From positions 51,866 through 115,865 of the forward strand of contig JAAOMT010000514.1 of NCBI GenBank assembly GCA_016748015.1: a stretch of 64,000 nucleotides of DNA. The letters are read 5' to 3'. The translations under genes were made by a program, and so were the position numbers. The notes under the pieces are model-generated. The model was not told where the DNA came from. It did no database searches and was given only the letters and a program-made list of their open reading frames with translations. This stretch comes from Geosiphon pyriformis uo1 (taxonomy: Eukaryota; Fungi; Glomeromycota). Shown in pieces: positions 26,591 through 60,599 of the stretch. Every line of letters starts with the position of its first letter. Within the stretch, counting starts at the first letter, position 1.

Positions 26591-26637
26591 TTATATATAT
26601 ATTTAATTTTTCCAATTAAATAGTTGTGTATTATTTT

Positions 26638-28671: not shown

Positions 28672-28879
28672 TGTTACCAGTAGAATTTTAGCTATTAATT
28701 AGCATGAAATTACCCTTATAATTCCTATAATTCATTAGTATATTAATATTATTTCAAATTATCATTTATTATTTAATCAATTATCACATATCATGATTCA
28801 AGTAAAATAATCTAATTAGTATAACAGAAAGTAAGATGATCAAATTACACAATACTCTGAACTTTGTAACATTCAAAAA

Positions 28880-28996
28880 TTCGCCAAAATTTATAGAAAT
28901 TCGCCAAAATTATGAATAGTTCACCCAAATTAATCAATAGTTCAGCGAAATAACTTGTAGTTCATCAAAATGTATCTTTAGTTTGCCGGAATTTGG
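28880..28996 (+). repeat. U3 tandem ~20-21-bp repeats (TTCGCCGAAA...TAG core), about 6 units
   Basis: ttcgccaaaatttatagaaa ttcgccaaaattatgaatag ttcacccaaattaatcaatag...; present in all A/C/F LTRs. Confidence 0.8.
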
Positions 28997-29041
28997 GCAA
29001 AAAGAAAAAAAGTGCAAGTTCATAAACTAGTACTACAACAA

Positions 29042-29059
29042 GTTGTATAAAAGAAGAGC
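29042..29059 (+). promoter_or_regulatory. Candidate TATA box of the A/C/F LTR promoter
   Basis: gttgTATAAAAgaagagc just downstream of the U3 repeats, conserved in all five A/C/F LTR copies; function inferred from position. Confidence 0.4.
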
Positions 29060-29646
29060 TTTTCTCTTCTGAAAAATGTATCTTACTTTAGATTTATCAC
29101 TTAGAACTATTCTTACATACACAAAAAGAAATAAATATCAAATAATTTAAAAAACCAAATTTTTTAAATTATTGCACTTAGAAAATCTCCAAAAACCCAA
29201 CTAACATTTTGAAATTGATTAGCTACCAATTTCAGTAAACTGTTAGTGACTCCAGGCCTGGATAGAAAACGTTTCTCTTGATAAAATTCTATTTCTTTTA
29301 TATTTCTTTTATTTTTCTTTCTTTTCTTATTACAATCATTAGGGTAGCCTACAGATAAGATTTCTGTAAAAGAGTTGACTTTCACAGCAAAGTAACTACA
29401 CATTTTAGTGAGCTTCCAGACAAGCAATTTTTGGGAAAGAGTTGACGTTTACTACAATGTAACTACATAAAGTAACTGGCAAGGAATTGGCCATTCCACT
29501 TATAAGCCCAGCAGTTCAAATTATAGGAGATAATTTGAAGATAAATTCGGTTATTGGAGGTTCAACCACATCCAAAAAACGTGAATTCACAACAGACAGG
29601 CATCAACAACATTTAAAAAAAGAGACCAAAAACCTCCAGTAACATT

Positions 29647-29656
29647 TGGTGCTCTC
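29647..29656 (+). promoter_or_regulatory. Primer-binding site of A (TGGTGCTCTC)
   Basis: Follows LTR-end CA plus TT; complementary to a tRNA ending ...GAGCACCA (isoacceptor not determined). Confidence 0.85.
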
Positions 29657-29689
29657 CTACGGAAATAACACAGTAACAACAAATTCAAA

Positions 29690-33039: not shown

Positions 33040-33465
33040 ACTTAAATATTTTGACAACCATGGCCAAGAAATCAGACCAGAAAAAGCACACGAAATTGAT
33101 GCTGGATATGACTTGAAATACCCAGGAAAAGATACTTTGATTCTCCAACCAAAGTTTTTAACAAAAATCAATTTAAAAATTGCTCTTAAAATTCCACCAG
33201 GAGCAATGGTTCAAATTGCCTCCAGATCATCATTGGCAAGCAAAAGAATCAATATTAGAGAAGAAGTTATAGATGTAGAATACACTGAAGACATTACCAT
33301 CATGCTACAGAATGAGACAGACAAACCATTCAAATTGAACATGCTGAAAAAATTGCTCAAGCAATTTACTTACCCTTAATCAACATTTCGGGTTTACAAT
33401 CAGTAAACAACAGAGAACAATTGGAAAAAAGTGAAAAAAGAACTCAAGGTTTTGGTTCAACTGGA
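33040..33465 (+). pseudogene. dut: dUTPase domain within pol of A
   Basis: All five trimeric dUTPase motifs in order (AGYDL, RSS, decayed GVIDAGYTG, KIAQAI, GFGSTG), with one frameshift; also in B (~38890-39310), E (~10820-11270) and F (~55100-55530). Confidence 0.9.
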
Positions 33466-34376
33466 CGATTTACAGTTCCAGTAAACATAGTTCTTAATAC
33501 ACAAAATAAATCTCACCAGATTCTTCAACTTCCTTAGCCAATTACCATTTCATCTTTTGGAGAACATCACGAAATTTACACTTGCTCAAAACCCACTACT
33601 ACACAACAAATCTTTGAATCCAATGAACAAATCTGTTTGAAGCATGAAATATCAATTCCAAACGTTTATATTCCCAAAGGAATGAAAAAATTTTGAGTTA
33701 CATTCTACAACCCCAATAATTACCCTATTGTTTTATTAAACAAATTAGAAATTGAAATCATACACAGCAATATCTTTCAAGATGAAAACTCTCAAATTGT
33801 CTCTAATTTCATCGAAATTATAAAGCACATTCTACTCCCAAATTCAAATATCATTTCCACTACTGGAAACTATTACTTGTTGGAAGAAAAACTCTCTCGA
33901 ATCAATATGAGTTCCTTAGAACCTCAACAACAAAGACAATTGAAACAATTGATAGCTGAATTTGCAGATATATTTGCAAAAGACAACAATGACTTGGGAA
34001 AAACAGACATTGTTCAACATCAGATTTATACAGGAGATGCTCTACCAAAATGTCAACAAGCTTATTGAGTGCCACCTGCCAGCCACCAATTTATCAAAGA
34101 AGAGGTCCAAAGAATGCTCAATAACGGATTGATTCAACCATCAAGAAGTCCTTGGGCCTCACCAGTAGTTTTGGTTAAAAAGAAAAACGGAAAAATTAGA
34201 TTCTGTGTTGATTATAGACAACTGAATAGTGTTACAATTGGAGATGCCTACCCTCTTCCAAGAATTGATGACATGCTAGATGCTCTGGGAAAAGCCAAGT
34301 TCTTTTCAACTTTAGACCTAGAAAGTGGATACTGGCAAGTCGAAATGGACCCAAAAGATAGACCCAAAACAGCATT

Positions 34377-34396
34377 NNNNNNNNNNNNNNNNNNNN
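34377..34396. other. Assembly gap (20 N) replacing the RT core of A
   Basis: Compared with F, several hundred bp of RT are missing across this gap. Confidence 0.95.
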
Positions 34397-34872
34397 CAGC
34401 CCCAGTTCTTGCTTACCCAGACTTCAACAAACAATTCCAATTAGCCACTGATGCTTCACACATAGCATTTGGTGCCATCTTATCACAATTGAATGAAAAT
34501 GGCCAAGAACAAGTTATTGTCTATGCCAGCAGAACATTCAAGCCAACAGAACTCAAATATGGTTCAACTGAATTAGAAGCTGCTGCAGTTATTTGGGCTC
34601 TTAAACATTTTCAACAATATCTGAAAAATGGAAAAGAATTTGACATAATAATGGACAACATTGGCCTCAAATGGCTCAATAAAAAGAAAACTGAACAAAG
34701 TGCCAAACAGTCTCAATGAAATGACTTCCTAGCAGACTACAGATATATTGTACACCACAAACCAAGAAAACTACATACCAATGTTAATAGCCTCTCAAGA
34801 ATGAGACAAGATTAATACCAACAACAATTCCACCACAACTTACCAACTTACCAACAAAATAACCAAATAAGA

Positions 34873-35979
34873 ATGGATCCCAGAAACTACAGCAATCTTA
34901 AAAATTATTTGGAGACTCTTACTATGCCAGAAAACTGGTCTCCAAGTAAAAACCACCACTTACAACACCAATCAAAACAATATTTCATACACCAGAACAA
35001 AATTTATTATAAAAATTACAGAAAACCAAACCAGCCACTCAGATTAGTACAAGAGAATGAAAAAGAAACAATTTTATACAACATGCACACAGATCCGTCT
35101 TCAGCACACTTGGGAAAAAAAAGAACAATTCAAAGAACCCTTGAACATTATTTTTGGTCTCACATGCAAAAAGACATTCAACGATATGTAGAATCTTGTG
35201 ATAACTGCCAAAGAAGGGGAGGAACTCGCTCCACAGAACCTTTAAATCCAATCAAAGTTAGACAACCTTTTGACAGAGTTGGAATTGATTTAGTCGGACC
35301 ATTACCTATCACAACCCAAGGAAATCGTTATATTGCAGTTGCAGTGAATTATCTTACCAAATGGCCTGAAGCTAGAGCCATCCAAAGAGCAGATGCAAAA
35401 TCAGTAGCAAAATTCATCTATAAAGACATTATCTGTAGACATGAATGCCCAATTGAACTCTTATCTGATCAAGGAACACATTTTGTGAACAACTTGATAC
35501 AAAAAATTTGTGAATGGTTCAATGTCAAAAGACCTCTATCATTACCTTATCATCCTCAAACAAATGGACTTGTAGAACGTTTCAACAGAACATTGTGTGA
35601 ATCTTTAGCCAATGTCTTAACAGACTTTGAACAGGAATGGAATATCTTTATTCCATCAGTGTTACTAGCATACAGAATACTAAAACAAGATACTATGAAA
35701 CACACACCATTTGATTTTACTTATGGAAAAACAGCAACATTACCAATTAATTTCACAGTAGAAACATATCCAGTGCAACCAATCAATGAAAAAAACTTTC
35801 AAAAAACACTCCAAAGAAGAGCCTACACTCTTCTTAGTACACTGGAAGAAAAAAGAAGAATAGCAGCAGCTCATATTGAACATTCCCAAGCTCAACAAAA
35901 AGAAAGACATAACAACAAATTACCATCTATTACCAACGAATTTAAAGTTGGAAATAAAGTTCTCTTACACAGAACTAAG
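34873..35979 (+). CDS. Integrase of element A (HHCC zinc domain + DDE core), open up to the gap
   Basis: H..SAHLG...CDNCQR; VGIDLVGP, LLSDQGTHF, YHPQTNGLVERFN; own ATG after the RNase H stop. Confidence 0.9.
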
Positions 35980-36416
35980 NNNNNNNNNNNNNNNNNNNNN
36001 NNNNNNNNNNNNNNNNNNNNNNNNNNNNNNNNNNNNNNNNNNNNNNNNNNNNNNNNNNNNNNNNNNNNNNNNNNNNNNNNNNNNNNNNNNNNNNNNNNNN
36101 NNNNNNNNNNNNNNNNNNNNNNNNNNNNNNNNNNNNNNNNNNNNNNNNNNNNNNNNNNNNNNNNNNNNNNNNNNNNNNNNNNNNNNNNNNNNNNNNNNNN
36201 NNNNNNNNNNNNNNNNNNNNNNNNNNNNNNNNNNNNNNNNNNNNNNNNNNNNNNNNNNNNNNNNNNNNNNNNNNNNNNNNNNNNNNNNNNNNNNNNNNNN
36301 NNNNNNNNNNNNNNNNNNNNNNNNNNNNNNNNNNNNNNNNNNNNNNNNNNNNNNNNNNNNNNNNNNNNNNNNNNNNNNNNNNNNNNNNNNNNNNNNNNNN
36401 NNNNNNNNNNNNNNNN
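35980..36416. other. Assembly gap spanning the IN C-terminus and ORF3 N-terminus of A
   Basis: Run of N. Confidence 0.98.
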
Positions 36417-36762
36417 ACGAAAACTGGAACTTGAAGCAACAAATCTCACTCCTGAAGTTATACAAAAACAAATCTACAATGAATTCAAAACAGCAGCTGA
36501 ACCAACAAACACTCACTACAAACTTAGAGCAGCTTTTAGACTCTATGATTTGTTTAATACTTGTGAAAATGTTCTACAAAATCCAATACTGCAATCAATG
36601 AAAGTCCAATACATTGGCAAACTCACAGAACTGAAATTTCAACAATTTTCAGACCAGATTACTTCAATCATTTTAGATCACTATCTCAATATTACAGATA
36701 GTGCTTGGACTTCAACGGAGCTCAGTCTTGAGGAGGAGATTATGTTACAGGTAGAATTTTAG
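36417..36762 (+). CDS. ORF3 C-terminal half of element A (unknown function); reads through the PPT into the 3' LTR
   Basis: Open frame RKLELEATNL...HYKLRAAFRLYDLFNTCENVLQNP...LSLEEEIMLQVEF*; homologous to F 58923-59642 and C. Confidence 0.75.
36730..36739 (+). promoter_or_regulatory. Polypurine tract of A
   Basis: GAGGAGGAGA, 3 nt before the 3' LTR TG. Confidence 0.85.
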
Positions 36763-37716
36763 CTATTAATTAGCATGAAATTACCTTTATAATTCCTATA
36801 ATTCATTAGTATATTAATATCATTTCAAATTATCATTTATTATTTAATCAATTATCACATATCACGATTCAAATAAAATAATCTAATTAGTATAACAGAA
36901 AGTAAGATGATCAAATTACATAATACCCTGAACTTTGTAACATTCAAAAATTCGCCGAAATTTATAGAAATTCGCCGAAATTATGAATAGTTCACCCAAA
37001 TTAATCAATAGTTCAGCAAAATAACTTGTAGTTCATCAAAATGTATCTTTAGTTTGCCGGAATTTGGGCAAAGAGAAAAAAAGTGCAAGTTCATAAACTA
37101 GTACTACAACAAGTTGTATAAAAGAAGAGCTTTTCTCTTCTGGAAAATGTATCTTACTTTAGATTTATCACTTAGAACTATTCTTACATACACAAAAAGA
37201 AATAAATATCAAATAATTCAAAAAAAACCAAATTCTTTAATTATTACACTTGGAAAATCCCCAAAACCCAACTAATATTTCGAAATTGATTAGCTACCAA
37301 TTTCAGTAAACTGTTAGTGACTCAAGGCCTGGATAGAAAACGTTTCTCTTGATAAAATTCTATTTCTTTTATATTTCTTTTATTTTTTCTTTTTTTTCTT
37401 ATTACAATCATTAGGATAGCCTACAGATGAGATTTCTGTAGAAGAGTTGACTTTCACAGCAAAGTAACTACACATTTTAGTGAGCTTCCAGACTAGCAAT
37501 TCCTGGGAAAGAGTTGATGTTTACTACAACATAACTACATAAAGTAACTGGCAAGGAATTGGCCATTCCACTTATAAGCCCAGCAGTTCAAATTATAGGA
37601 GATAATTTGAAGATAAATTCGGTTATTGAAGGTTCAACCACATCCAGAAAACGTGAATTCACAACAGATAGGCATCAACAACATTTAAAAAAAGAGACCA
37701 AAAACCTTTGGTAACA
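36743..37716 (+). repeat. 3' LTR of element A
   Basis: TGTTAC...GGTAACA; direct repeat of 28672-29644. Confidence 0.97.
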
Positions 37717-40700
37717 ATGTGCTCTAAAAACTTTAGTTCAGTTTTTCTAAAGAAGCATTTGTCGGGATTAAGTTTTAATCTGAAATTTTGAAGGCATTTG
37801 AACACTTGTTGAAGGTGGAGCAAATGGTTGTCAAATGTTTCTGAGAACATGTTAGTGTTGTCCAGATAAACTACAACTGATTTCCAAAAAATTCCTTTCT
37901 ATACTACATCCATGAGGCATTGAAAAATGGCAGGAGCATTATAAAGTCCAAAAGGCATCACATTAAATTTAAAATTGCTATCTCAAGTAGTAAACACTGT
38001 TTTTTCTTTGGTCTTGGGATCTATTTCAACCTGCCAATAGCTACTGGTTAAGTCTAGCAATAAGAACCATTTCTTTTTTTTTAGATTGTCCAGAATTTTC
38101 TGAATGAGGGGAGTGGAATAACTATCTTCTCACATGATGCTGTTTAGTTTTCTGTAGTCTATGCAGAATTACACTTTTCTGTTTTTTTTGGTGACCAAGA
38201 CTACTGGAGAGAACCAAGGGCTTAATAATTTCTTGATTAAACTGTTATTAAGCATCCGTTGTACTTATTGTTTAATTAAGTTATTGCCAGATAAGGATAC
38301 TCAGTAAGCTTGTTGCTTGATAGGTCGAGCATTTCCTGTATCAATTTGGTGTTTTACAATGTTAGTACGTCCAAACTCATTTTCACTGGCAAAGACATTA
38401 GCATACTAATTCAAAAAGAGTTGCATTTGTTGTAGGGTACTTAAGTTTCCTAAATTTAATTTATTGATCTCCTCTGATGTGAATAGATAACTTTCTTTTG
38501 GCAAATTCCATACTTGTAATGTAATGTCACAGAATAAGAACAATTGTGTGAAATCTGGAATAGACTGGGGTTTTTCAGGATTCTGAATATCTGTGGATAT
38601 AGAACTGATAAGAGTTCCCTCAGGAATTTCTATTACATTTTTGGTTGGATTGTGAATGGAGATTTTGAAGTGTTTATAAGCCTTTGCTAATAGATACAAG
38701 TTAGTAATGTCAGCTAGAAAGCAAATTTCAGGATTGGCTTCAAATAGCAGAACTTGGTCTTAAATTTTCTGATTTACTTTGAGGATATATTGTTAATAGG
38801 AAGAGATGGAAATGACAGTGTCAGTGTAGATAAGTTCTATTTGGTCACTGTTTTCTTTTGCAAGATTGACTGGTATGTTTTTTTTTCCACTTGATCCGAA
38901 CCCATTAATTTCTTGGGCAGTGAAGCCTAACTTTTCACAAGTAGTAATTGGAGCTAATTGTGGTATTTTTACCAAAGGCAGGAAGATAGCTTGAATTATT
39001 TTGTCATGTAATTCTATTTTGTAGGATCTATCTGAATTGTTTTGTAGCATCACAATAATATTTTTAGTATACTCAGCATCGATAATTTCTCCTTTTACAT
39101 TGATATCTTTTTTTGCAAGGCTAAATCTAAATGCTACTTGTATCATAGTATTAACTAGAATTTCTAATGCTATTTTGAAATCTATGCTTACTAGGGAATG
39201 TGGGGCTATAATTAGGGGTGATTATTTAGAGTATTGTAAATCGAAACCAGCATTAGTGTTATGTGCTTTTTTGGAGCAGATTCTTTCATTATTATTGCTA
39301 TACCATTTCAATTCTAATTCCTTGGAGAGATCGGAATATGCAAGATATTGTTTTGTTTCAGTAGTCTTGTTTGGCTCTTAAAACAACATGTTCTTAACTA
39401 TTAATTTGGCTTCTTCTTTAGACTCTGGTAGTTTGTTAATAGAGTATAAGATTCTTGGCAGTGAATTGAACATGAAGTCACATTTGTCACAGTACTGAAA
39501 ATGGCAAGAGATTAGACAATGATCACATAGTTTTGTGTTTAGGTCAGCTAGTCTCTGTTTCTGTTCTTTTCAAATTGGGGCCAATTCTTGATAATGATCC
39601 TGAAATGTGTCTGAATTATCAGTGAAAAAATCTTTGGTAATGTAATCAGGTCCATTGTATTCAGGTACAAACAGATTTTCTTTGATTTCTCGGATTTCAC
39701 TGAGTGTGGCACCTTTGGCTTTGGCACTTGTCATTCTCCATATTTCGTGTTCATTGTGTGGGTACTCGTCCAATCAATTGAGTGCTTGTTTCTAGACATC
39801 TTCAATTAGGGTTCCCTTTCATACCCAATTATTGATCAAAATAGTATATTGACACACTTTGTCACATGTCTCTTCTCTGCCAGGTACATCATTCCAGAAT
39901 CTTTCATCAAATAGAATCTCACCACAGGCAAAACATGGTGTATTGTCCCATTTATCTTGTTATTTTGGTCACCCAAATCTTTCCAACACACAAGATCTAC
40001 AATAATATTTGGTGGTGGTTGGTTATTTTTTATCATCTCTGATACATGTACCCATCAAAGATAGCTTCTTTCCACAATTGATACAGATTAGCTTTGGAGG
40101 TTGATAAAATAGGTTTTTTTGATTGCTAGTTGAGTAGCCCCATGGTGGAGGTTTTTCTTCAGCTCTTCCTTTTCTTTTTTCTTCCCAGATTGGTAGTGGT
40201 GATAACTCCATTCAGAAATCATCTGCCCAGGAAACTTGATAAGTTTCTATAATTAGTGGAGGTATTATGTCCTTAAATTTGATCAGCAGTGGTTCTATGT
40301 CTTGATTTTTGAAATATCCACACATAGTAAAAACTTGGACATGCTGTCCATTGAACATGATTTGGAGCTTTTGAGTGTTCCAATTAAGAATGGCATTGGC
40401 TTTTGATAATCAATCATTTCCTATAAGGGCTTGATATTGAGTCACTTTCATAACAAGCACTTTTGTAGGGATTTGAATTCCATTGATTTTGAAAGGGAAG
40501 TTGTTAATTTTGCCTATTAGAGTTTTTGTGTTTCCGTCAGCAGTAATTATCTTAGCAGTAGCAGCATGATTCATTCAGTAACTTAGTTGATTCATAAGTT
40601 GTTTCGTGATTATACTGCCTGTGGATCCATTGTCAAGAATTAGCTTAATGTCTAAAGTTCTGACTTTAGCATCAGCATACATAGCCATTATTGGTTTGTT

Positions 40701-42880
40701 TGGGTTGATGGCGGCTCTATTAAAAAGGTTGGTTGTTTTCAGGCTGTCAATGTTGAAGGGAAATATAGCAGCCAGGGTTGTGTCTTCTATAATGGTAGTG
40801 GGTAGAATGTTATTAGTAGTCAGAGGTTGATTTACAGATGAAGGGTTGGACACTTTGCTTACATTTCTTCCTTCAGCAAATGTAGTGTTACAAAATCCTG
40901 AATTTCTATAAAACCAAAGTATGAGACCTGATTGGGGTATCTGGTTGGTGCAAGTTAAAAGGAAGTATTGTCCCGATTTATTGGTTGAGACGGTCCACTC
41001 AAAGGTTGGGTTTGGTTTCCACTGCTGTTTTACCAGCTTTGGCTGTAATCTATTGCACGAGACCTAGACTGGTTATATACAGGGTTTTGATACTGAGATG
41101 CTGATTGAGCCAGCAATGGCGGGAGTTGATAATAGCTTGGAAGCAGTTGGGGTGAGTATTAATTTTGGTATTGAGGAGCATGATATGGAGGTCCTGTGGT
41201 GGAGAGGTATCATGCTTAATATTGATACAGGCTTCCTTAATTCTGATTGGCTGCTTTTTTTTGACAGTTCCATACAACATGGCCCAGTTTCTAACAGTAA
41301 TAACAATTACAGGGGTCGGATTTCCAAGATTGTTGTCATTGTTATCGACTCTGTTACTGTTAGTATTAGTTATTGTTGTCGTTGTCTCTTTATTGGAATG
41401 ACTGATAGGTTCTGGTCATATTGGCCAGGAATCTCTTAATTTTCTGAATTAATTTCTCACTTAATTGAGTTATTTTTGCATCAATATTGGATGTCTCATT
41501 GATAACCAAGTTGATGACTTGAGTATGATTGGCTTCTTGTTCCATGAACTCGAAATCACAGGCAAGGATAACTGCTTTGTGTAGGTCTGCTGGGTGGCAG
41601 AATCTCACTGATCATAAGATGCTACTTCTTAACCCTTTAATGAATTGATTAAGAATTTGCACTGCTGTGTAGTAGTCTCTTTCAATGGCCTGTATTTGAC
41701 AAAGAGTTTGATTGAATTGTCCAAAATAAGTGGTTACTGCTTTGTGATCTTTTTGTTTAATTATGCTGAATTGATTCTGCAATCTGATTAAAGTATTAGG
41801 GTCACAAAAATATCATAGAAAGACTAGCTTGAAAGTGGCAAAGTTGGTTGGTTTTTCTGCCAAACTTTGATACCATGAATCTGCAGTTCCAGTTAAAAAG
41901 AATGGCAGTGCTTGGATAGCTCTGTCATCATCTCAGTTGTTGGTAGTAATTGCTTTCTTGGCTTCCACAATCCACAAGTATGCATTGTTTTCTTCACCAA
42001 AGAATTTTTCTAGCTTGGTAATATCTTTGTAAGCCATGATTTAGTTGATGGGTAGAAGATTTGAGGGGATTGGTGTCTGTGTGTTAGAGAGTTTTCCTGG
42101 CATTAGCTCTGGTTGTTTTTTTTTGTCATTAGAACCAATAGGTTGTAAAATAGTGGCTTTTTCTATAAGGGAAGATACTGTGCCTGATGAGATTTGTTCT
42201 GTTAATAGTTCTCAAGTTGACGTGTTCTTGTCTGTTTTATTAATTGTGGGGGTCAGATTTCCAAACAATAACCCATATTCTTCTAGAGATTTGGTTCAAC
42301 TGTGGTGTTCCCAAGAGTATAGATTTCCAGAAGTTCGTGGTGTTTCTGACTGGGTTTCTGGGGGGGTTGAATACAATTCTACTTTGGAGTGTCTAATGGT
42401 ATGATGGAGTTGTTAGGGAAAGGAATCTTGGTTTCTTGTTAACTATGGATTGAGCTTGTTTCCTTCCAGTTTTTGAATTGAATCCAGACTTGTTTTTTTC
42501 AGAGTCTAATTCCTCTGGTTGGTTTACTTGAGGAAAACGTTTTTTCACATAATGTTTAATGTCTGTATCAATTATGTAAAGGGTTTCAGCAATGACGCGG
42601 GCTGTGGTGTTTGTCAAGTATCCTAATAATTTGTGGTGAATCTGTTTACCAAGTTTTTTTGTATCCATTGATCAACCTAGCAAACAGTCAATTTTCACAT
42701 TGATGTAATTACAAAAGTCACTTTCTGCAGTAACAGTTTTGGCTGGTATTCTTAAGTCTTCTTGTAAATATTGAAATAATGCTCTTCCATACAGGAAGTG
42801 GTTCTTTTCTACTGTTCCAATAATTGCCACTTTTGTGAATGTCTGGAGTGCTCTGTCTCTGTGGATTTTATGATCTTATA
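37717..42880 (-). pseudogene. gag, PR, Cys-rich domain, dUTPase and RT N-half of element B
   Basis: MAYKDITKLEKF capsid start at ~42038; CYYC*KLGHVVWNC; LILDNGSTGS; GEIIDAEYT...GFGSSG; VVVYLDNT. Confidence 0.9.
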
Positions 42881-42890
42881 GGGAGCACCA
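42881..42890 (-). promoter_or_regulatory. Primer-binding site of B (TGGTGCTCCC)
   Basis: Plus strand gggagcacca, 2 nt from the LTR end at 42893. Confidence 0.85.
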
Positions 42891-42892
42891 AA

Positions 42893-43959
42893 TGTTATAA
42901 ATAAACTTGGTAGCATATAGCAGTAATGTTTGGTGCTCTAATTTGTTATAGTGTTTCTTTAGTTTTATTGTCACATCCGTGTAACTAGTTTTGGCGTTAT
43001 TAGTCTTGGTATTATCAGTCTCTGAAAGTCTATTCCAGCATGTGAATTTACTTGTTGAGTTCTTTAATTATAAAGCACAGAGTATTATAACATTGTCAAA
43101 TGCAACGTTTTTAGAGGTGAACTTTCTTCTCCGAGTTAACAAGCACAGTTGTTAGGATCTGGCATTGTCTTTTTACTCTTCTGGTAAGCTAACAAGATAA
43201 AGTTAATATCCAAAACCTAGGGGGAGCTTCCTTCTTTTACCAGGCTATTACAAAGTCTATTTCCAGACAGTTAATTTTATTATGTTGTTGCTCCACAAAG
43301 AAAAAATAAAGAAAAAAAAAAATACAGAAAAGAAAAAGAAAAATAAAGAAAAGAAAATAAAATTAGTATTGTCAATTGCCGTGATTAAGAGTAATTGGTC
43401 CAAGTCATTAATGAGTTGAGACGGTTATGCTAAAAACATCTGGCTCAGGATGAAAGTATGTAACAATAATTAGTACTATTAGCAGTAGGTAAGTTTAAAG
43501 ACCATGTGTCTTGAGATTTGGATTGTTATATTATAAATTTTATTTTGATTGGTAAAAGTGGATAGTAAATGAGATAAAAAGGTAAGATGATTGATTTTTA
43601 TTTAGCTGTCTATTTTTTTCTAACTTCTACAACTACTCATTTTTATACATTCTTTTGGTTTTATAGAACTGCTTCCAATTGTTACATTATCACTAGCTAT
43701 TGCTTTATTATTTCTGTTATTGCTTTATTATTCTATGTTATTGCTAGATATTTTGTATTATAACACATTATCTGGCATTATTAAATGTTATTCTGTATTA
43801 TTCTATGTTATAATACATTATTCCATACTATTTTGTGTTATCCTACATTACAACATATTATTTCATGTTATTGCACATTATCCTGTATTATGTCACATTT
43901 GTTTATGTTTTGGTTACGTTTTTCTCATAATTTGGATTGGTTTTTCTACTCAGGTAATA
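42893..43959 (-). repeat. 5' LTR of element B
   Basis: TGTTA...TAATA (decayed TAACA); repeat of 24817-25803; ~20-bp U3 tandem repeats at ~43680-43900. Confidence 0.9.
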
Positions 43960-44693
43960 TTGGCTTCCTGTGGCTGTTCAGAAACACCTTTATAATAAAT
44001 GTTATTCTAGTGTTTTATGTTTATATTGTGATAAAATAGAGGTGTCTGATCATGTGTTTTCTTGTGTGGTTGACATTTCTGCTCATTGTCAGATTTTGGA
44101 CTTCTGTGCATCTTTTGGAAGGTGCTTTCTGGTCTCTTTATTCCTTTTTTAAATATGTTGTAGCTGCTGTCAACTTGTGCTTTAGATTTTTTGGTGTCCT
44201 TAGTTCTTTACAAGAGTTTTGTTTTTAATAGATGGCTTCAGGAGGCTATTTCCATCTTTCATGATCCCAAAATTGCTGATGTCAAAATTATTGATTTCAT
44301 GTGCTCTCTTTGTTTCACTTTTAGGAACAATATTTGGTTGGTTCATGTTAAGCATCATGTCTTTATGAAAAAGAATAGTCTGATTCCTAGGGACGGCTCA
44401 GCTCTCATCTTGGTTCCTGGTCTGGCTTCAGTGTTTTTGGCTGGTGTGGTTAAACTGCTTGGCATTACAGAGACTTTTGGTGTTTGTTTTAGTTTTCGCA
44501 GATTCTGGTTGTTTTTTTCAGATATTGGTAACTCGGTTTCTGTTAATATAATTGTGTAGTATTGTCTTAACTGGCTTGAGTGGCTAGTCATGTGTAGAAA
44601 ATGCATGATTCATGTTTAATTTAGATCATTTCTTTGATGTATAGTTCTGAATGGTGTTTGGATTTTATTCGTTAAATAAAAAAATAAAAAAAA
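43960..44693 (+). mobile_element. 3' end of LINE I (C-terminal zinc finger, 3' UTR, A-rich tail)
   Basis: LPVAVQKHLYNKCYSSVLCLYCDKIEVSDHVFSC; ORF 44191-44559 is homologous to LINE G 45346-45894; A-rich tail at 44674-44693. Confidence 0.88.
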
Positions 44694-50012: not shown

Positions 50013-50690
50013 TGAGAAAAAAGATTGGAAAATGCATTACCAGCCAAAATTGAATCATCAAATCTTGCTATTAGACTCAAAACCAAAGCAGAAAGCCCTT
50101 TCAGTATGATTTCTAGTCTTTTTACTTTAGGAGATGCAAAAGAAACTAATTTCACAGCAGTCTCACCACCAGTGTTCCCACTCAACTCTTTCTTATCACT
50201 ACATTACTCACTTGATCCTATAATAGGGGGGTTACTGGCAGCTAACATTCAGGGCTAGGCTGGAAAACTGCTGGCATGAGTGAATCCAATCTCTTAGCCA
50301 ACTCACTAATTTGTTTTGTGAGGCTGGTAAGACTATTTTCCAAAATAGCAAACCTTTTTTCAATATCAATTATAACAGACAGAGTAGACTTCATCTCCAA
50401 AAAGAAACCAGAATCGACCAAACTACTATGCACAGAAAAAGGAGGAAACAAAAATCTACCTGCAATCTTTGCCTAAGACACTTTACCAAAAACGATAGAA
50501 TGAGCAACAGGAACTGAACATTTAGAATAAATGTTAACCAGTCTGCTTTTATCCAAGTTTGAAAGTATTCTATGAGAAGATCTTCCAAAGAAAAAATTCT
50601 TACCCACAAAACAGCTCAATGATGTATAATCCACTTTCTTACACTTAGCACATTTAGAAAAACCCAAATAAGACCAGTGCAGATTCATGT
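50009..50690 (-). pseudogene. LINE G ORF1 C-terminal part (degenerate zinc knuckle, coiled coil)
   Basis: CAKCKKVDYTSLSC; IEKRFAILENSLTSLTKQISELAKRLDSL heptads. Confidence 0.75.
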
Positions 50691-51679
50691 TGTTACCAGA
50701 CAAAATTAGAGATATTATTTAGCATAAAATTATTTTTATAATTCTTATCATTAATTAGCATATATTATTGTTTCAAATTATCACTTATTACATTAGCAAA
50801 ATGTCCGAAATTATCATTTAATTAATAACCCAATTTGTACATAACACAGATATAACCTAATTGCAATGATCAATCATGCAATATCCCGAAATATGTAACA
50901 TTCAAAAGTTCACTGAAATTTGTAGAAATTTGCCGAAATAATTGATAGTTCACCAAAATATCTAATAGTTCACAGAAATAACTTGTAGTTTACCAAAATA
51001 TATCTTTAGTTCAGCAAAATTGTAGAAAAGAACAAAGTTCAAGTTCATAGAATAGTGTTATGACAAGTTGTATAAAAAAAGAGCTTCTCTCTTCGAAAAA
51101 ATGTATCTTACTTTAAATTTATTACTTAGAACCATTTCTACACACACAAAAAAAAATAAAATATCAAATAATTTGAAAAACCAATTTCTTTAAAATATTG
51201 CACTTGGAAAATCTCCAAAAAAAAACCCAACTAACGTTTTGAAATTGATTAGCTACCAATTTCAGTAAACTGTTAGTGACTCCAGACCTGAATAGAAAAC
51301 GTTTCTCTTAACAGAATTCTATTTCTTTTACATTTCTTTTATTTTCTTTCTTTTATTTTCTTATTATAATCATTAGGGTAGTCTACAGATGAAATTTCTA
51401 TAGAAGAGTTGACTTTCACAGCAAAGTAACTACACATTTTTAGTGAGCTTCTAAACAAGCAATTCCTAAAAAAGAGTTGACATTTACTACAACATAACTA
51501 CACAAAGCAACTGGCATGGAATTGGCCATTTCACTTATAAGCCCAGCAGTTCAAATTATAGGAAATAATTTAAAGATAAATTCAGTTACTGGAGGTTCAA
51601 CTACTTCCTGGAAACGTGAATTCACAGCAAATCAACATCAACAACATTCAAGAAAAAAGACCAAAAACCTCCGGTAACA
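50691..51679 (+). repeat. 5' LTR of element F
   Basis: TGTTACCAG...CCGGTAACA. Confidence 0.97.
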
Positions 51680-51681
51680 TT

Positions 51682-51691
51682 TGGTGCTCTT
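51682..51691 (+). promoter_or_regulatory. Primer-binding site of F (TGGTGCTCTT)
   Basis: Same position and sequence as the PBS of A. Confidence 0.85.
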
Positions 51692-51724
51692 CCACGGAAA
51701 TAACACAGCAACAACAAATTCAAA

Positions 51725-54700
51725 GTGGCAACCACACCAGACACAACAACTCTAGAGTATTACCAGTCAATTTATACACACTGCAAGCAAAGATTCAACA
51801 TTCCAGACGGAATTGAAGTTGTCAAGAAATCAGTATACCAATACATTAAAAACTGCATCAACAATTATCTTTTTAGAAACTACAACATTTCAGAAGTTAG
51901 AAGCAACCTCTACAATAATTTAGTGCACTATTCACAATTGGGAACAGAAGACCTGAACAGTAAAACACTTGCTAACTACTTCCAAAAACTTAATTTTAAC
52001 ATTATTGAGTATTGTTAAAAAAAATACCCAGTACAGTTTAAATATTCTTTTGACTTTGAATCAGAAACAAAAACAAGCAACAAAGGCAAACAAAAATTGA
52101 ATACTCAAAAACCACCCCAAATACTCCAATACTACCAAAAACAACTGCCAAACACTTACAAACACCTGAACAAGGAACCAGTTCAAAACTCCCACTCACT
52201 ATTACATCTTTTCTAACTTCACTTGTACAAACAAAAACTCCTAATTTACCTTTAAATCGATTTTCAAGACTAGAAGATTATACATCACCCAGAAGTCCCA
52301 CCAGACAACAAGAAACCCTTCAGACTAGTACCAATCTTCTTGACTATTTAGCAGAAAACACAAGTGAACACTCTGAAACATTAACCAATGAAGAAAACGT
52401 TTCTGAATCCATTGAAGAAGAAATAGAATCTGAAGAAAAAAGTGAATTAACAGATAATGAGAAAGAAGATGAAATAACAGCTTATATTGCAAAAATTTCT
52501 GAATTTAATAGAGAAAATATTGAGACCAGTCCCCAAGAATGGCTCGACCAAGTTACTAAAGCTGAAGATGCAAATGGATGGAATGCTGCCAGAATGTTAA
52601 AAACAATTTTCTACTTTCTCAAAGGAACAGCAGACAAATGGTTCGAAAACTTGATCACTTTTTTTAATAACTGGACAGCTTTCAAAACTGCCTTCTTAGA
52701 ACAATTTACTGATAACAACACCTTCATTACTCTTCAAAATTGTTTTCACAATATCAAACAAGAACCCTCCGAATCTGTCATGACTTATATTGGGAAATTC
52801 AACAAACTTCTCAGACAAATTCGCCAACTTGAAACTAATAATTATTATTTCAATGCTCAAATCTTGGATCAATTTATTGCTGGTCTAAAGGATAAACTGA
52901 TTAAAAAGATTCACTCACATGCCCCAGAAGATTTAAACTCTGCCATACAACATGCAAAGAGATACGAAATGACCATAGAAGAGACCAATCACACAAAACT
53001 TGTAAACTTGGCCATTAAAGAAACCAGTTTAGCAGCTGAAAAGAAAATTGACCAACTTACAAATAAAGTTGAAAACTATTTCACCAACCAACAACAACAG
53101 CAACCCCAAAAATATCAACCACCCCAAAGACGAAATCAAAATACCTTCACATCACCTTCTAATAACCAGTCTCAGAATTGCCATTACTGTGGAATTCCTA
53201 GCCACTGAAAAAGAGATTGCAGAAAGTTACAATGAGACCAACAAAATAGGAGTAATTAATATTACCCTCCACTACAGCAATCTTATTATTAACCACCACC
53301 ACCAGCTTACTATCTACCAAGACCCCAATACCAAAATAACTATTATCAGCCTGCCCCACAGCCAATCCAACAACAATACCAACAACCACTTACACAATAT
53401 TATCAAGTACCTGCTCGAAGATTGATTACACAAAATCAATTCACACCATAAAACCAATACCAAGTAAACAACAATAGAATTAGTTTAAACAACCAATTGG
53501 TTACCTGAAATTTCACTCAACCAAGACCCAACCACTATCACATTCAACCCAGTTATTTAACAATTCCAAAAGAACAGAATTTTCACCATACTGCACTCTC
53601 AGAATGTAGAGCTGCAGCATGACAACAAAACTTTTCCTATACTCTTACCACAATTTTACCAGCCAGAATTGCTGAAAATGCCAACTTTTCAGATATATTC
53701 CCTTTTGAGTTCGAAGCAAATGAGTCACCATTCCTGCTCAGCAATGCAGTCACCAATGAACAAAAAGCAATCACTGCTATGTACACTGAAGCAGAAGTCG
53801 AAAGAAAGGCAATTTGCTTGATCCTAAACAGTAGATCCACCAGAAGCATCATCACCTACCAGTTGATACAACAGTTAAAGAGAAATGTTAACTGACCAGT
53901 TCAGACAGTAATTGTTACTGGTGATAACATAAAAAAGACTCTTGTAGGAGAAATTGACAATTTTCTGTTCACTCTTGATGGAATCACCATTTCAGTTAAA
54001 GTTCTTGTAATGAACACGCCCCAGTATCAAGCCCTTGTCGGAAATAATTGGCTCCAAAAAGCCAATGCAAAATTAAACTGGGAAACCCAAGAATTACAAC
54101 TCTTCTATCAAGAACAACATGCCTGAATATCTGCTACTTGTGGTACATTCAACAAACAATTGGAGAAAGCCCCTGTCTTTGAATTTGAAGAGAAGGAAGA
54201 AAAGCCTGTAGTCGAAACATTTATGGCTCTTGAATTAACATCTAACTGGGCTGAAGAAACTGAGCAAACGTATTTTGCAACAAAATCATATCTAGAGGAA
54301 CCAAAAACCCTTGAATAGAACATCCCATATTCTAAACCAGAACCAAAGAAACAACACTCTTACATTCCACTCAAATGCAAGAACTGCCACAAAAAACTCT
54401 TCTCAATAGGAGCCTGCATTTCACCTGAAGAAGAATATGAAAATCATACTTGTTATTACTGCAAAGCTTGCCACAGAGAATGATAGGGCCATCTAATAAA
54501 AAGAAGTGGAAAATAGGACAACACTCTTTGTTTGACTTGTGGAGATACACTACCAGAAGAATACAATTGGATTAATATAGCAATAAGAGAAGGAGTCTGC
54601 AATCAAACCTGCCAATATGCTTTATCAATTTCAGAAAAAGTCAAAAGAAGAACACTCTTTGATGCAGCATACAACAGTGCTTTCAACAAACTCTATTACT

Positions 54701-57368
54701 ACCCTCATGATGCTGAAATGATTTTCAACCTAGCAATGGCATTGGTTAATAGAGCTACTAAAGAAGATGTTTGTCAAATAAAAGAAGCTGAATATATCAA
54801 ATATACCTTGGAATTAGCTGGATACGATTATGAAGATGAAGTAGAAGTGTACCATCAAATTGCAAGTCACACCTATCCGACTAAAGAAGCTCAAGCTCAA
54901 CAGCTAGAGCAAATGAACATTATATTGTGTAAAGAATGCATAATGCCTTGCGATAAACAATGGTGCTCTGAATACTATGCTCTTAGCATTCCTCTGCCCA
55001 GTGAAAATGATAAAAACGAAATTGAATTTGGAGAACCTGAAGCAACAGAAGAAATTGAAACAACACTCATCTATCTCATTGAAAATTAGCCTGCCTTACA
55101 ACTCAAATACTTCAACAACAACAAACAAGGAATAAAACTTGAAAAAGCACATGAAATTGATGCTGAATATGACCTAAAATATCCAAACAAAAATACTCTT
55201 GTTCTCAAACCCAAATTTCTCACAAAAATCAACCTCAAAATTGCTCTCGAAATCCCACCAGGAGCAATGGTTCAAATCACCTTCCGGTCTTCTCTGGCAA
55301 GCAAAGAAATTAATGTCAAAGGAGAAATAATTGATGCTGGATATACTGGTAATATAACAGTAATACTCCAAAACAAAACTGACAAGCCGTTTAAGATTGA
55401 ACATGCCGAGAAAATTGCCCAAGCCATTTATTTACCCTTAATTAACATTTTGGGTTTACAATTAGTCAATCAAAAAGAACAATTGGAAAAAAGTGAAAGA
55501 GAAACTTAAGGTTTTGGTTCAACTGGACAATTCACAGTTTCAGTAAACATAGCTCTCAATAAACAGAATGAGTCTCACCAGATTTTATGCCTTCCCCAAC
55601 CAATTACTATTTCACCTTTCAGAGAACACTCTGAAATCTATACCTACTCAAAGCCAACAACCACCCAACAAATTTTTGAGTCCAATAAACGAATCTGCTT
55701 GGAACATAATATCTCGATTCCAAACATTTATATTCCAAAAGGAACAAAAAAAGTCCAAGTTACTTTTTATAATCCCAACAATTATCTTATAGTTTTATTA
55801 AATAACTTAGAAATTGGAATCATTCACAGTAACATCTTTCAACAAGAATTACCCCAAACAGTCCCCAATTTCTCTGAAATTATTGGACATTCACTACCAA
55901 AAATCAACCCAAATCCCAGCTCTGAAAACTACTATGTTGTTATAGAAAAACTATCTTGAATTAACATGGGACAACTTGAACCACAACAACAAAACCAGCT
56001 CAAAGAGCTAATTGCAGAATTTGCCGATATCTTTGCTGAAAACAACAATGACTTTGAAAGAACCAATTTGGTTCAACATCAAATCTACACAGTAAATGCC
56101 AACCAAGGTGACAGCAAGCCTATTGAGTTGCTCCAGAAAGTCACCAATTTATTCGCAAAGAAGTACAACGGATGCTCAACAATAGGCTTATTCAACCATT
56201 AATGAATCCATGGGCCTCACCTGTGGTCTTAGTTAAAAAGAAAAATAAAAAGATACGATTTTGTGTTGATTATTGACAACTCAACAGCATCACCATTGGA
56301 GATGCCTATCCTTTTTCCCGAATTAATGACATGTTAGATGCTCTTGAAAAGTTCAAATACTTTTCAACATTAGATTTAAAGAGTGGATACTGGCAAGTTG
56401 CCATGGATCCCAAAGATTGCCCCAAAACAGCATTTACTATTCAAGAAGGAAATTACAAGTTCAACGTAATGTCTTTCGGATTATGCAATGCACCAGCAAC
56501 ATTCTAAAGACTCATGGATGTTGTTTACAAAGGCCTCCTTTGGAAATCAGTAGTTGTTTATCTTGATAATACTGATGTTTACTCACCATCTTTTGAATTA
56601 CACTTAAAACACCTGCGAAAAGTCTTTCAATGATTATGGAAAGCAGAATTGAAACTGAACATCAAAAAATGCTACTTCAGAAAAACAAGTTTGGCCTTTC
56701 TTGGTCATATCGTTAGTAAAAATAGAATCAAACCAGATTCTGGAAAAATCAGTGCTGTCAAAAACTTCAAAACTCCTCAAAACACTACAGAACTAAGAGA
56801 ATTCATAGAGTTAGCCTCTTACTATTAGAAGTTTATCAAAGAATTCTCAGAAATTACAAAACCTCTCAACCAGCTTACCACCAAAAACGTCAAATACAAA
56901 TGAACTGCTGAACACCAAAATGCATTTGAAATCCTCAAAGAAAAACTAATCACAGCTCCAATTCTTGTCTACTCAGATTTCAGCAACCAATTCTGGTTAG
57001 CAATAGATGCCTTTTATACTGCCTTTGGTGCCATTCTATCACAGTTAGATGACAATAGAAATGAACAAATAATTGCTTATGCTAGTAGAACATTGAAACT
57101 GGCTGAAAAAAACTACCCTGCAACAGAATTAGAAACTGCAGCAGTAATCTGGGCCCTACATTACTTCAACCTTTACTTCAGACCCAAAGAATTCAATATT
57201 ATCACTGATAATATTGAACTCAAATGGCTTCAAAACAAAAACACTCAGCTAAATGCCAAACAAACCTGATGGACAGAATTTTTAGCCAACTACCAATACA
57301 TTGTACATCACAAACCAGGAAAACTCCACACCAATGTTGATTGTCTCTCAAGAATAAGGCAAAATTAG
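51725..57368 (+). pseudogene. gag-pol of element F (Gag, PR, Cys-rich domain, dUTPase, RT, RNase H)
   Basis: Colinear with A; GEIIDAGYTGNI (dUTPase motif III); VVVYLDNT; ends SRIRQN*; many premature stops. Confidence 0.93.
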
Positions 57369-57414
57369 AACATAAAAACAACTCCCATTTGAATTAACAA
57401 CAAAACAACAAACA

Positions 57415-58800
57415 ATGAATCCCAAAAACTACAACAATCTTAAACAATATTTGGAGACATTAACAATTCCAACAGATTGGTTCTCAAATAAAAAACATTG
57501 GTTACAACAACAAGCCAATTAATACTTCTTACACAACAACATGATTTATTATTGAAACTTCAGAAACCCAGACAATCCACTCAGATTAATACAAGAACAT
57601 GAAAAAGAAACCATTTTATATAACATGCACTCAGACCCTTCATCAGCACACCTAGGAAAAGACAGCACCACCCAGAGAGCACTAGAATATTATTTTTGGC
57701 CTCAAATGAGAAAAGACATTTATAAATATGTTAAGTTTTGTGATAGTTGTCAAAGAAGAGAAGGAACTCACCCTATAGAATCTTTAATCCCAATCAAAGT
57801 TGAACAGTCTTTTGACTGAATTGATATCAATTTAGTCGGACCACTCCCTATCACAAACCAAGGAAACTGTTATATTGCAGTAGCTGTAGACTATCTCACC
57901 AAATGGCCTGAAGCCAGAGCCATTCAACAAGCAGATGCGAAATCAGTAGCAAACTTCATCTACGAAAACATTATTTGTAGATATAGATGCCCAATAGAAC
58001 TTTTATCTGATCAAGGAACACATTTTGTGAACAATTTAATCCAGGAAATTTGTGGACAATTTAATGTCAAAAGACTATTATCTTCGCCCTATCATCCACA
58101 AACAAATGGACTTATAGAACGTTTCAACAGAACATTGTGTGAATTATTAGCCAAGGTTTTAACTGATTTTGAGCAAAAATGAGATCTTTTTATTCCATCA
58201 GTGTTACTAGCATATAGAACACTAAAACAAGATACCACAAAACACACACTATTTGATTTAATCTATGAAAGGACAGCAATGTTACCAATTAGTTTCACAA
58301 TAAAAACATATCCAGTACAACTAATTAATAAAGACAACTTTCAGGAAACACTACAATAAAGAGCCTATACTCTGCTTAGCACATTGGAAAGAAAACAATG
58401 AATAGCAGCCACCCATATTAAACACTCTCAAGCTCAACAAAAAGAATGGCATGACAACAAATTGCCTTCAGTTACCAATGAATTTAAAATTGGAAACAAA
58501 GTTTTCTTACACAGAACTAAAGCTGAAAAACAATAGAGTAAAAAATTTGAAAATAAATGGAATGGACCATTTTTTATCCATGAAGTCCTAGGCAATGGAT
58601 CATACAAGCTAAAACTTGATGACAAAATTCTAGCAAAAGTTGCACATGGAAATCGTTTAAAACACTATAATTCCAGAAACAATCTTGAACCATTAATTCT
58701 ACAAATTGGTACACATTCCCCTTTAATCAATTCCGAAAATATTCTCTGAAATTTAGAACCAATAGTTGTTATTGAACAACCTCCCAACTTGAACACTTAA
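57415..58800 (+). pseudogene. Integrase of element F with GPY/F module, no chromodomain
   Basis: MNPKNY start; HHCC; DDE core; KWNGPFFIHEVLGNGSYKL; ends NLEPIVVIEQPPNLNT*. Confidence 0.9.
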
Positions 58801-58922
58801 TTTAAATTTATTATTATAGTTATCTTCTTATAATTTAGAAACAATCTTACAAAAACAAAACAAAAATAACATAAAAACCCATACACCAAAAATAATTTTC
58901 TTTTATTTTCAAATTTCTTATA

Positions 58923-59642
58923 ATGACTATTCCTCAAAACATTCAACAATTATTCCAAAAACTAATGTTAGCTTTAAAAACAATACCCGAATTATCTATT
59001 ACTGTTACTGGAAACCACATTAATTATACCCAAACAGAAGTAGTTACAAATTTAGCCCCAAATTCACGAAAATATCACCTGTATAAGAAGAACACAAGAA
59101 ATTATTCTGGAATTCACCTGCCAGAACTTTTAAAGCTTGCTTTAAGAGAAAACTTAATGCTCACTTCTATTAGTATTCCACCAAATGCTATTATTTAACA
59201 AAAACTTCAACTGTGTCTTAATAAAGAAAACTATGACTATACTCCAATATATAGATATTTTTACATTGAAAAAACACTTCACAAATAAAAACGGGAGCTT
59301 ACAGCAACAAACCTTACAAAAGAAGCTATTCGGAAACAACTCCACAATGAATTCAAGACAACAGCTGGACCTACAAACTGTCATTATAAACTAAGAACTG
59401 CTCTTAGACTTTATGACCTATTCTACATCTGTGAAAATGTCCTACAAAACCCAATTTTACAGTCTTTGAAAATTCAATACATTGAAAAGCTCACAGAACT
59501 GAAATTTCAACAATTTTCAGACCAAATTTCTTCAATAATTTTGGATTATTATCTGGAAATTACAGACAGTACTTGGACTTCGACAGAGCTCAGTTTTGAA
59601 AAGAAGGTTATATTACCAGACGAAATTAGAAATATTATTTAG
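58923..59642 (+). pseudogene. ORF3 of element F (unknown ~240-aa accessory protein), overlapping the PPT and 3' LTR
   Basis: ATG at 58923 after an A-rich spacer; MTIPQNIQQLFQKL...; after one frameshift and stops it continues as ...HYKLRTALRLYDLFYICENVLQNP...ILPDEIRNII*. Confidence 0.75.
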
Positions 59643-60599
59643 CATGAAATTATTTTTATAATTTTTATCATTAATTAGCATATATTATTGTTTCAAATTA
59701 TCACTTATTACATTAGCAAAATGTCCGAAATTATCATTTAATTAATAACCCAATTTGTACATAACACAGATGTAACCTAATTGCAATGATCAATTATGCA
59801 ATACTTCGAAATATGTAACATTCAAAAGTTCACTGAAATTTGTAGAAATTTGTAGAAATAATTAATAGTTCACCAAAATATCTAATAGTTCACAGAAATA
59901 ACTTGTAGTTCGCCAAAATGTATCTTTAGTTTAGCAAAATTGTAGAAAAGAGCAAAATTCAAGTTCATAAAATAGTGTTATGACAAGTTGTATAAAAAAA
60001 GAGCTTTTCTCTTCGAAAAAATGTATCTTACTTTAGATTTATCACTTAGAACCATTCTTACACACACAAAAAGAAATAAAATATCAAATAATTTGAAAAA
60101 CCAATTTTTTTAAAATATTGCACTTAGAAAATCTCCAAAAAAAAACCCAACTAACATTTTGAAATTGATTAGCTACCAATTTCAGTAAACTGTTAGTGAC
60201 TCCAGACCTGGATAGAAAACGTTTCTCTTGACAGAATTCTATTTCTTTTACATTTCTTTTATTTTTTTTCTTTTATTTTCTTATTATAATCATTAGAGTA
60301 GCCTACAGACGAAATTCCTGTAGAAGAGTTGACTTTCACAGCAAAGTAACTACACATTTTTAGTAAGCTTCCAAACAAGCAATTCCTGAGAAAGAGTTGA
60401 CATTTACTACAACATAACTACACAAAACAACTGGCATGGAATTGGCCATTCCATTTATAAGCCCAACAGTTCAAATTATAGGAAATAATTTGAAGATAAA
60501 TTCAGTTACTGGAGGTTCAACTACTTCTTGGAAACATAAATTCACAGCAAATTAACATTAACAACATTCAAGAAAAGAGACCAAAAATCTCCAATAACA
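59611..60599 (+). repeat. 3' LTR of element F
   Basis: Direct repeat of 50691-51679 (first TG decayed to TA). Confidence 0.95.

Follow-up and report, generated by a model that had tools for sequence, protein, structure and literature searches.

How does a retrotransposon supply its integrase when the gene for it stands outside Pol? Long terminal repeat (LTR) retrotransposons normally deliver integrase to the particle as part of Gag-Pol. The question is raised by 64,000 nucleotides of the Geosiphon pyriformis uo1 genome (contig JAAOMT010000514.1, positions 51,866 to 115,865; this whole stretch is called the window below), and in particular by copy F (50691-60599), a complete Ty3/Gypsy LTR retrotransposon inactivated by decay. 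Copy F and its relatives carry three separate genes: a Gag-Pol open reading frame (ORF), an integrase gene with its own ATG and a separate ORF3. We are highly confident of this anatomy and of its conservation across the clade. For integrase to be made separately, a fungus must be able to translate an ORF located behind a very long one, and the enzyme must be packaged without fusion; neither requirement has been described for LTR retrotransposons.

The integrase gene and its junction with Pol

In copy F the Gag-Pol frame stops four codons past the last RNase H motif, and the integrase ATG follows 46 nt on in another frame. Copy E, a second member of the F family, shows a stop, 57 nt and an ATG, while in copy D, of a divergent family, the stop is followed after 16 nt by a start that has decayed. 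In the preliminary description of the window integrase was taken for the last domain of Pol, a placement that had to be given up. The common layout it proposed for copies A, B, E and F otherwise holds as far as module order is concerned (tblastn, Pfam and translation): capsid, protease (PR), Cys-rich module, dUTPase, second module and reverse transcriptase (RT) were found by tblastn in identical order in A, B and E.

The same junction was found in relatives. A protein search with the integrase of copy E as query returned 120 relatives with 43-65% identity, including gene models of Rhizophagus irregularis and R. clarus. Of these, 97 start with Met in the same register and 1 is longer; the remaining 22 open with a Met further along or with a different residue. 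Since this search was limited to proteins of 202-646 aa, so that fused forms could not appear, the junction was checked on metagenome DNA. Of eighty metagenome loci collected, the junction count covers the 40 that contain the end of RNase H together with the start of integrase; the remaining 40 were set aside because their sequence does not extend far enough in that direction. All 40 junction-spanning loci have an ATG at the integrase start and none is fused. Their spacers range from -20 to +943 nt and are spread over the three frames (18/11/11), with 10 spacers at +5 nt or less, 9 at 6-50, 16 at 51-200 and 5 longer, although the two longest may reflect breaks in the RNase H tail. With RNase H followed by a stop codon in F, in E, in D and in 40/40 loci, integrase is not the C-terminal domain of Pol as in canonical elements. 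This lowers the standing of the element as a canonical member, not the view that it works like a Gypsy element.

Seen from the side of Pol the picture is the same. Among 120 long relatives of the RT-RNase H region, 22 of the 24 most identical ones end at most 7 residues from the aligned RNase H end; the two exceptions are partial matches to pseudoscorpion polyproteins, and less similar relatives are mostly fused. Long stop-free ORFs that end before integrase occur in loci L024 (1622 aa) and L034 (1480 aa) and in the protein cluster of P0277 (12 members, 1321 aa).

Phylogenetic analysis showed clustering of the separate-integrase elements. In a FastTree of RT-RNase H (135 rows) a branch of 53 rows with support 96 contains F, all 21 metagenome loci used, 27 integrase-less proteins and four fused rows, these being three R. 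clarus models that lack the RNase H end and the real fusion P0304. In an integrase tree of 49 rows, from which 2 candidates had been dropped as short, all 25 stand-alone rows group with P0302 and P0304 in one branch (100/99). The trees contain no named reference elements and set the clade beside Gypsy-type relatives only; these are animal, plant and Chara polyproteins that fall outside it. The named hosts within it are Geosiphon and Rhizophagus. By these trees the separate-integrase rows appear as a well-supported clade that includes Rhizophagus proteins and one fused member, a lineage defined by its split integrase and helical ORF3.

Some observations weigh against this anatomy as a trait of the whole clade. 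P0304 lies inside the clade and is truly fused. In copy A, RNase H and integrase are in frame without a stop, and as its relative C has stops this family is ambiguous. The metagenome loci are not independent, several of them being near-duplicates. Finally, an IQ-TREE analysis of RT-RNase H with 52 of the FastTree rows recovered the group at 84/41 only, which is weak support.

Translation of integrase and ORF3

Translation from a single genomic RNA appears to be the most likely mechanism by which integrase and ORF3 are made, and on balance we consider it probable. The fuller statement, in which the anatomy described above is combined with translation of both ORFs off one full-length RNA by re-initiation or internal initiation, lies only a little on the favourable side of even. 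The Gag-protease-RT-RNase H polyprotein would end at its stop, and integrase and then ORF3 would be read downstream by one of these two routes. Because integrase would then not be cut from Gag-Pol, a separate route into the particle would be needed; the free enzyme could enter by binding Gag, RT or element RNA, most plausibly via its clade-specific N-terminal helical extension. The Geosiphon sub-lineage would in addition have gained a likely zinc-binding module and a dUTPase, which might prevent uracil from entering the cDNA. In other respects reverse transcription and integration would be standard, tRNA-primed and primed at the polypurine tract (PPT).

Several signals at the junctions are consistent with this proposal. 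A purine is present at -3 in 64/70 integrase starts, compared to 288/457 internal Met codons, and the integrase ATG thus looks like a selected start. Stop and start codons overlap or nearly touch at 10/40 RNase H/integrase junctions (one TAATG) and at 7/24 integrase/ORF3 junctions (ATGA, TGATG). According to the accessible text of PMC10275272, overlapping stop and start codons are the arrangement used for termination-reinitiation, in which TURBS, the termination upstream ribosome-binding site, has a range of ~30 nt. A covarying RNA hairpin of ~40 nt was found 0-32 nt (mostly 3-4) 5' of the integrase ATG in 26/80 loci (for instance L013:3755-3815, L034:4456-4508 and L056:1-53). In its alignment 98.9% of cells pair, two-sided changes occur in 6/9 pairs and RNAalifold gives the same fold; a comparison of 13 loci with Rfam gave no match. 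As a separate observation, L015, L024, L025, L034, L043 and L047 form a sub-lineage in which RNase H runs on for another 220-350 residues, including an acidic tract and a Cys/His-rich domain, up to its stop codon; most of them have the hairpin.

Other observations speak against translation from one RNA, or at least against its simplest form. G at +4, found at 60/70 integrase starts, is biased by the way in which starts were picked. As many as 30/40 spacers are longer than 5 nt and 28/40 longer than 30 nt, and those of F (46 nt) and E (57 nt) lie past the TURBS range; with only 10/40 tight junctions, simple stop-restart is weakened as the whole answer. The sequence TATAWA is slightly enriched upstream of the ATG (15/66 versus 9.7; 24/500 shuffles), which suits an internal promoter, and the hairpin is absent from the window.

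It is possible, though less likely, that integrase and ORF3 are expressed from subgenomic mRNAs of their own, either transcribed from an internal promoter or spliced from a leader donor as for env-type ORF3s. Spacers of up to 943 nt, often A/T-rich, would allow for this, as would the TATAWA enrichment and a YAG just 5' of the integrase start in copy D, and in the accessible part of PMC5408684 the ORF3s of LTR elements are typically derived from spliced messages. However, the 66 upstream regions were not enriched in splice acceptors (YAG 38/66 versus 35.5 shuffled) or branch points (branch plus YAG 8 versus 11.5), there is no AG past the stop codon in the F spacer, and stop/start overlaps at both junctions in several lineages would be purposeless. 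It is improbable that a fused integrase is still produced, whether ribosomes read through the stop or shift frame or a short intron is spliced out. Within the clade P0304 is a genuine fusion, and the R. clarus 'Pro-Pol' models P0302, P0306 and P0311 also join RNase H to integrase, but they do so by skipping the last RNase H motif and these joins are likely prediction artefacts. The free frame and length of the spacer argue against readthrough or frameshifting, as it occurs in all three frames and at lengths from slight overlap to the maximum given above, while the Met register is kept in the 97 divergent proteins.

That the split is an artefact of decay, with a stop made by C-to-T mutation and a frame shifted by small indels, might be suspected from the state of copy F, with its 33 in-frame stops and two frameshifts. 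The split is not explained in this way, because relatives with long stop-free ORFs (L024, L034 and the P0277 cluster) also end before integrase and fused loci number 0/40; in practice these intact relatives refute the explanation, to which we give almost no credence. At the other extreme, the elements may form an ancient Gypsy clade, found in arbuscular mycorrhizal fungi and their relatives, that has turned truly polycistronic, in which ORF3 would be a re-initiation factor of new fold (a functional analogue of the caulimovirus TAV) or an integrase recruiter, and the 40-nt RNA a new fungal element for internal initiation or packaging. This extension of single-RNA translation is speculative and we regard it as doubtful. 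The junctions and the hairpin might serve as tools for expressing polycistronic RNAs in fungi.

ORF3 and the modules added to Pol

The preliminary description had ORF3 at the end of the common layout. Copies F and E contain it, as does the fragment that lies at 23.6 kb; the match in D is weak (E 5.6e-4), and copies A and C gave no significant one. Of 27 candidate ORFs downstream of integrase in the relatives, 22 belong to one family, which is present in 22/33 loci with at least 650 nt downstream, as judged with a profile built including those sequences. An A/T-rich lineage is without ORF3. Loss of ORF3 is associated with overlapping junctions, an association confounded by lineage. The ORF3 of the window is tied to the family by hhalign (76.9%, E 2e-5) and by alignment; a hidden Markov model (HMM) from the 22 clade ORF3s alone gave no match to the ORF3 of F or of L001. 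In most relatives, as in the window (59580-59642), the end of ORF3 is encoded by a pre-PPT motif and the PPT and reaches the 3' LTR.

The structure model of ORF3 is all-helical, with a predicted local distance difference test score (pLDDT) of 94.9. Among 24 ORF3s no transmembrane segment was found, the top 19-residue hydropathy being 1.32. No Pfam family matched, Foldseek gave no match at E 0.001 in PDB or BFVD and the best VIA Z was 4.8, although a missing fold match does not prove a new fold. A sequence search of PDB returned designed helical proteins only, and the nearest Atlas cluster is unnamed, eukaryotic and mostly from Mucoromycota, with a recognition score below the threshold of the tool. 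ORF3 is thus modelled as a conserved soluble helical protein that is not Env-like, and the term 'retrovirus-like' given earlier to the lineage was overstated for a protein without a transmembrane segment.

The Cys-rich module gave 217 matches among representatives at 50% identity. Of nine divergent matches looked up, 8 are from G. pyriformis and the ninth is P0392, from a 19-kb ENA contig. P0392 is stop-free over 1064 aa, has the order PR-Cys-dUTPase-second module-RT and shares 46% identity with copy E in the Cys module. P0275 and P0515 (JGI) show PR-dUTPase-RT-RNase H without a Cys module. The fold of the Cys module, which had been proposed as a check, was modelled with pLDDT 74.7 and found only weak matches to LIM/GATA zinc fingers (best Foldseek E 0.27, best VIA Z 4.9); judged from its residues, it likely binds zinc. 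None of 15 related loci spanning gag or PR to RT carries dUTPase or the Cys module, and a dUTPase was present in 1/120 long RT relatives. This near-absence in relatives suggests that both are add-ons of a sub-lineage, and neither defines the clade.

The second module was earlier called a dUTPase-like repeat. It is indeed conserved, across the Geosiphon families and in P0392. Its proposed origin as a repeat of dUTPase was not supported by pairwise comparison (z 0.9), by HMM scores, which were within those of shuffles, or by hhalign (probability <2%); its Atlas matches are unnamed and one short common motif was seen by eye.

The window, its copies and related systems

The window (GC 15-37%) is filled with nested and decayed retroelements (Table 1). 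As stated earlier, copy F is without N gaps; it is not intact, and the 33 in-frame stops over five translated segments with two frameshifts (near 52.1 kb and 56.1 kb) make it a dead element. Pfam, on F read through stops, recognized Retrotrans_gag/Ty3_capsid, dUTPase, RVT_1, RT_RNaseH, Integrase_H2C2 and rve. The absence of a chromodomain was confirmed: Pfam found no Chromo match in F and PF00385 is listed for 0/120 integrase relatives, while the end of the E integrase falls in an N gap. Copies B and D, described before as separate, are one element broken by E inside RT: B ends with LKFLEH, D resumes with VIRKDKVKP and E is flanked by a 4-nt duplication.

Table 1 Features of copy F and the other retroelement copies in the window
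Feature	Positions	Strand	Remarks
Left target-site duplication copy ATGT	50687..50690	+	right copy 60600-60603 = ACGT
5' LTR of F	50691..51679	+	989 nt, TG...CA
Primer-binding-site (PBS)-like TGGTGCTC	51682..51689	+	2 nt past LTR; TGGTGC also after LTR ends in B, A and several relatives
Gag N-terminal extension	51725..52100	+	no Pfam family; putative start: candidate GTG (51725; -3 A, +4 G) or splice acceptor there
Capsid (Retrotrans_gag, Ty3_capsid)	52606..52995	+	Pfam
CCHC zinc knuckle	53179..53220	+	followed by Q/N/P-rich linker; seen in translation
Aspartic protease	53760..54130	+	catalytic motif decayed in F, LDSG in E
Cys-rich module	54370..54999	+	several conserved CxxC/CxxxC pairs round helical core
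dUTPase	55090..55530	+	Pfam E 3.5e-19; five family motifs visible across copies and in intact P0392, P0515
Second conserved module (former 'dUTPase-like repeat')	55531..55900	+	~120 aa; conserved across copies
RT and RNase H	56133..57368	+	Gag-Pol stop codon 57366-57368, four codons past D-x-L-S-R motif
RNase H/integrase spacer	57369..57414	+	46 nt, A/C-rich, non-coding, no ATG, shifts frame
Stand-alone integrase ORF, own ATG	57415..58800	+	N-terminal helical extension, HHCC, DDE core, SH3-like C-terminal part, no chromodomain
ORF3	58923..59642	+	239 codons, predicted soluble and helical; crosses PPT, ends 32 nt inside 3' LTR
Polypurine tract	59598..59607	+	
3' LTR of F	59611..60599	+	989 nt
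Copy E	28672..37716	+	F family, 77% DNA identity to F; interrupted by two N gaps; integrase ATG at 34873, after a 57-nt spacer that follows the RNase H stop
'B'	37717..43961	-	5' half (LTR to mid-RT) of divergent-family element, broken by E
'D'	24818..28671	-	3' half of B's element; RNase H stop, 16-nt spacer, integrase start position = ATA (decayed)
3' fragment of another F-family copy	23610..24816	+	end of ORF3 plus LTR
Copy A	5900..15847	-	third family, in heavy decay; ambiguous junction of RNase H with integrase (in frame here, stops in relative C)
Copy C	19613..23609	-	3' part of A family

In Gag no ATG is found past the PBS. A GTG in A(-3) context opens the conserved frame in three families of the window (51725; B near 42840; A near 14890), and a CTG in similar context stands at the start of the Gag frame in L050 near 5100. 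Geosiphon Gag may therefore start at a near-cognate codon or at a splice acceptor. A start at an ATG in U5, spliced over the PBS, is used in many gene models and was dropped as these conflict and LTR copies have ATG, AAG or ACG at that codon. Three sequencing runs over the LTR/gag junction revealed no splice joint that could be used and no variation beyond the DNA type, and are uninformative on expression. Many relatives, among which L024, L028, L034, L043, L047 and L061, have a Gag N-terminal domain of another type (H...H...CxxC...FWxW), unlike the Geosiphon extension.

The family is abundant in its host. All best protein matches of copy F are G. pyriformis gene models, as are the 120 best of 345 matches to the Gag N-terminal extension (67-92% identity), and a 1-kb piece of F was matched by 9422 contigs in one DNA run, in keeping with a high-copy family. 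These elements are behind hundreds of G. pyriformis 'hypothetical protein' models (the 345 matches), which, with the stand-alone Rhizophagus 'DDE integrase/transposase' models, are likely mis-classified. No relative of the element was found in IMG/VR.

Between the LTRs of F 54/55 differences are transitions, in the contexts CpA (18), CpT (19), CpC (10) and CpG (7). Repeat-induced point mutation in Neurospora focuses on CpA, and the pattern in F is unlike it. Each of the two complete insertions of the F family is flanked by a 4-nt duplication, ACGT/ATGT (28668-28671/37717-37720; 50687-50690/60600-60603), while at the third insertion (24817-24820) the only side that is known reads GCAT. The share of ACGT among the positions of the window is 0.04%. 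Together these sites, of which only two are complete, suggest that the target of the F family may be CpG-centred. The LTR of the B/D family contains an array of 10-nt tandem units (25551-25743; 43707-43919). On the minus strand of 44000-50690, decayed frames resemble RT and RNase H of the long interspersed nuclear element type (by eye, from translations), and F is inserted beside or into one.

The lineage was supposed to be a distinct and possibly undescribed clade of Metaviridae with accessory functions. A distinct non-chromoviral Gypsy lineage with extra modules, apparently undescribed, is supported by the sequence comparisons; the dUTPase and Cys module are not its defining traits. Nor is a dUTPase with a 3' ORF special, since a dUTPase between PR and RT and an extra ORF3 are each known in LTR elements. 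The same layout may have been described already, for instance in a Ylt1-like element, SN_1006 or a Rhizophagus family in Repbase, which would leave only the Geosiphon add-ons as new. An LTR expansion in G. pyriformis, with LTR elements at 41.2% of the genome, has indeed been published (accessible text of PMC11952901). We think such an earlier description unlikely. No description of a separate own-start integrase was found in the literature searched, although one might be present in Repbase, in GyDB, in papers under subscription or in the table of family structures in PMC2864245, and the accessible portions of PMC3248453, PMC6839031, PMC5009743, 10.1101/2023.09.13.557621 and 10.1101/2021.03.30.436303 contain none. 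A survey of integrase positions distinguishes five states, none of which, in its accessible text, is an own-start ORF after RNase H (PMC2774666), and in the available part of a fungal survey most elements have one or two ORFs (PMC2864245).

Copy F shares with canonical Ty3/Gypsy elements direct LTRs with TG...CA ends, PBS, PPT, target duplication, a Gag with capsid and CCHC knuckle, and the order of PR, RT, RNase H and integrase. It differs in that integrase lies outside Pol, Gag and Pol form one frame, a third ORF runs over the PPT and, in Geosiphon, Gag has no ATG past the PBS. Chromoviruses carry a chromodomain at the C-terminus of integrase, which is absent from F; Gmr1-like elements have integrase upstream of RT, whereas it lies downstream here; and the env of errantiviruses and Retroviridae has a transmembrane segment, unlike ORF3.

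A dUTPase in Pol is also found in Postia placenta PosPlaTy3-5, where it stands between PR and RT, in Phanerochaete elements and in Tuber Tmt1 (accessible text of PMC2864245). In the elements described here Cys-rich and second modules flank the dUTPase, there is no chromodomain and integrase is separate. Elements of bdelloid rotifers combine a dUTPase with an extra 3' ORF, but their ORF3s are Env-like, GDSL esterases or DEDDy nucleases, and no separate integrase is mentioned in the accessible text (PMC5408684); the ORF3 described here has no Pfam family or matching fold. The closest parallels in translation are SART1, the TURBS of caliciviruses and influenza B and the TAV of cauliflower mosaic virus, in which downstream ORFs are read from one RNA with UAAUG/AUGA overlaps and RNA structures or a transactivator (accessible text of PMC10275272). 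None of these concerns the integrase of an LTR retrotransposon, and most spacers found here are longer than TURBS allows. In foamy viruses the whole of Pol, including integrase, is separate and spliced, and the enzyme is packaged without fusion to Gag. The elements of Geosiphon and its relatives are alike in that an enzyme gene apart from Gag needs fusion-free packaging, and they are unlike foamy viruses in that integrase alone is separate.

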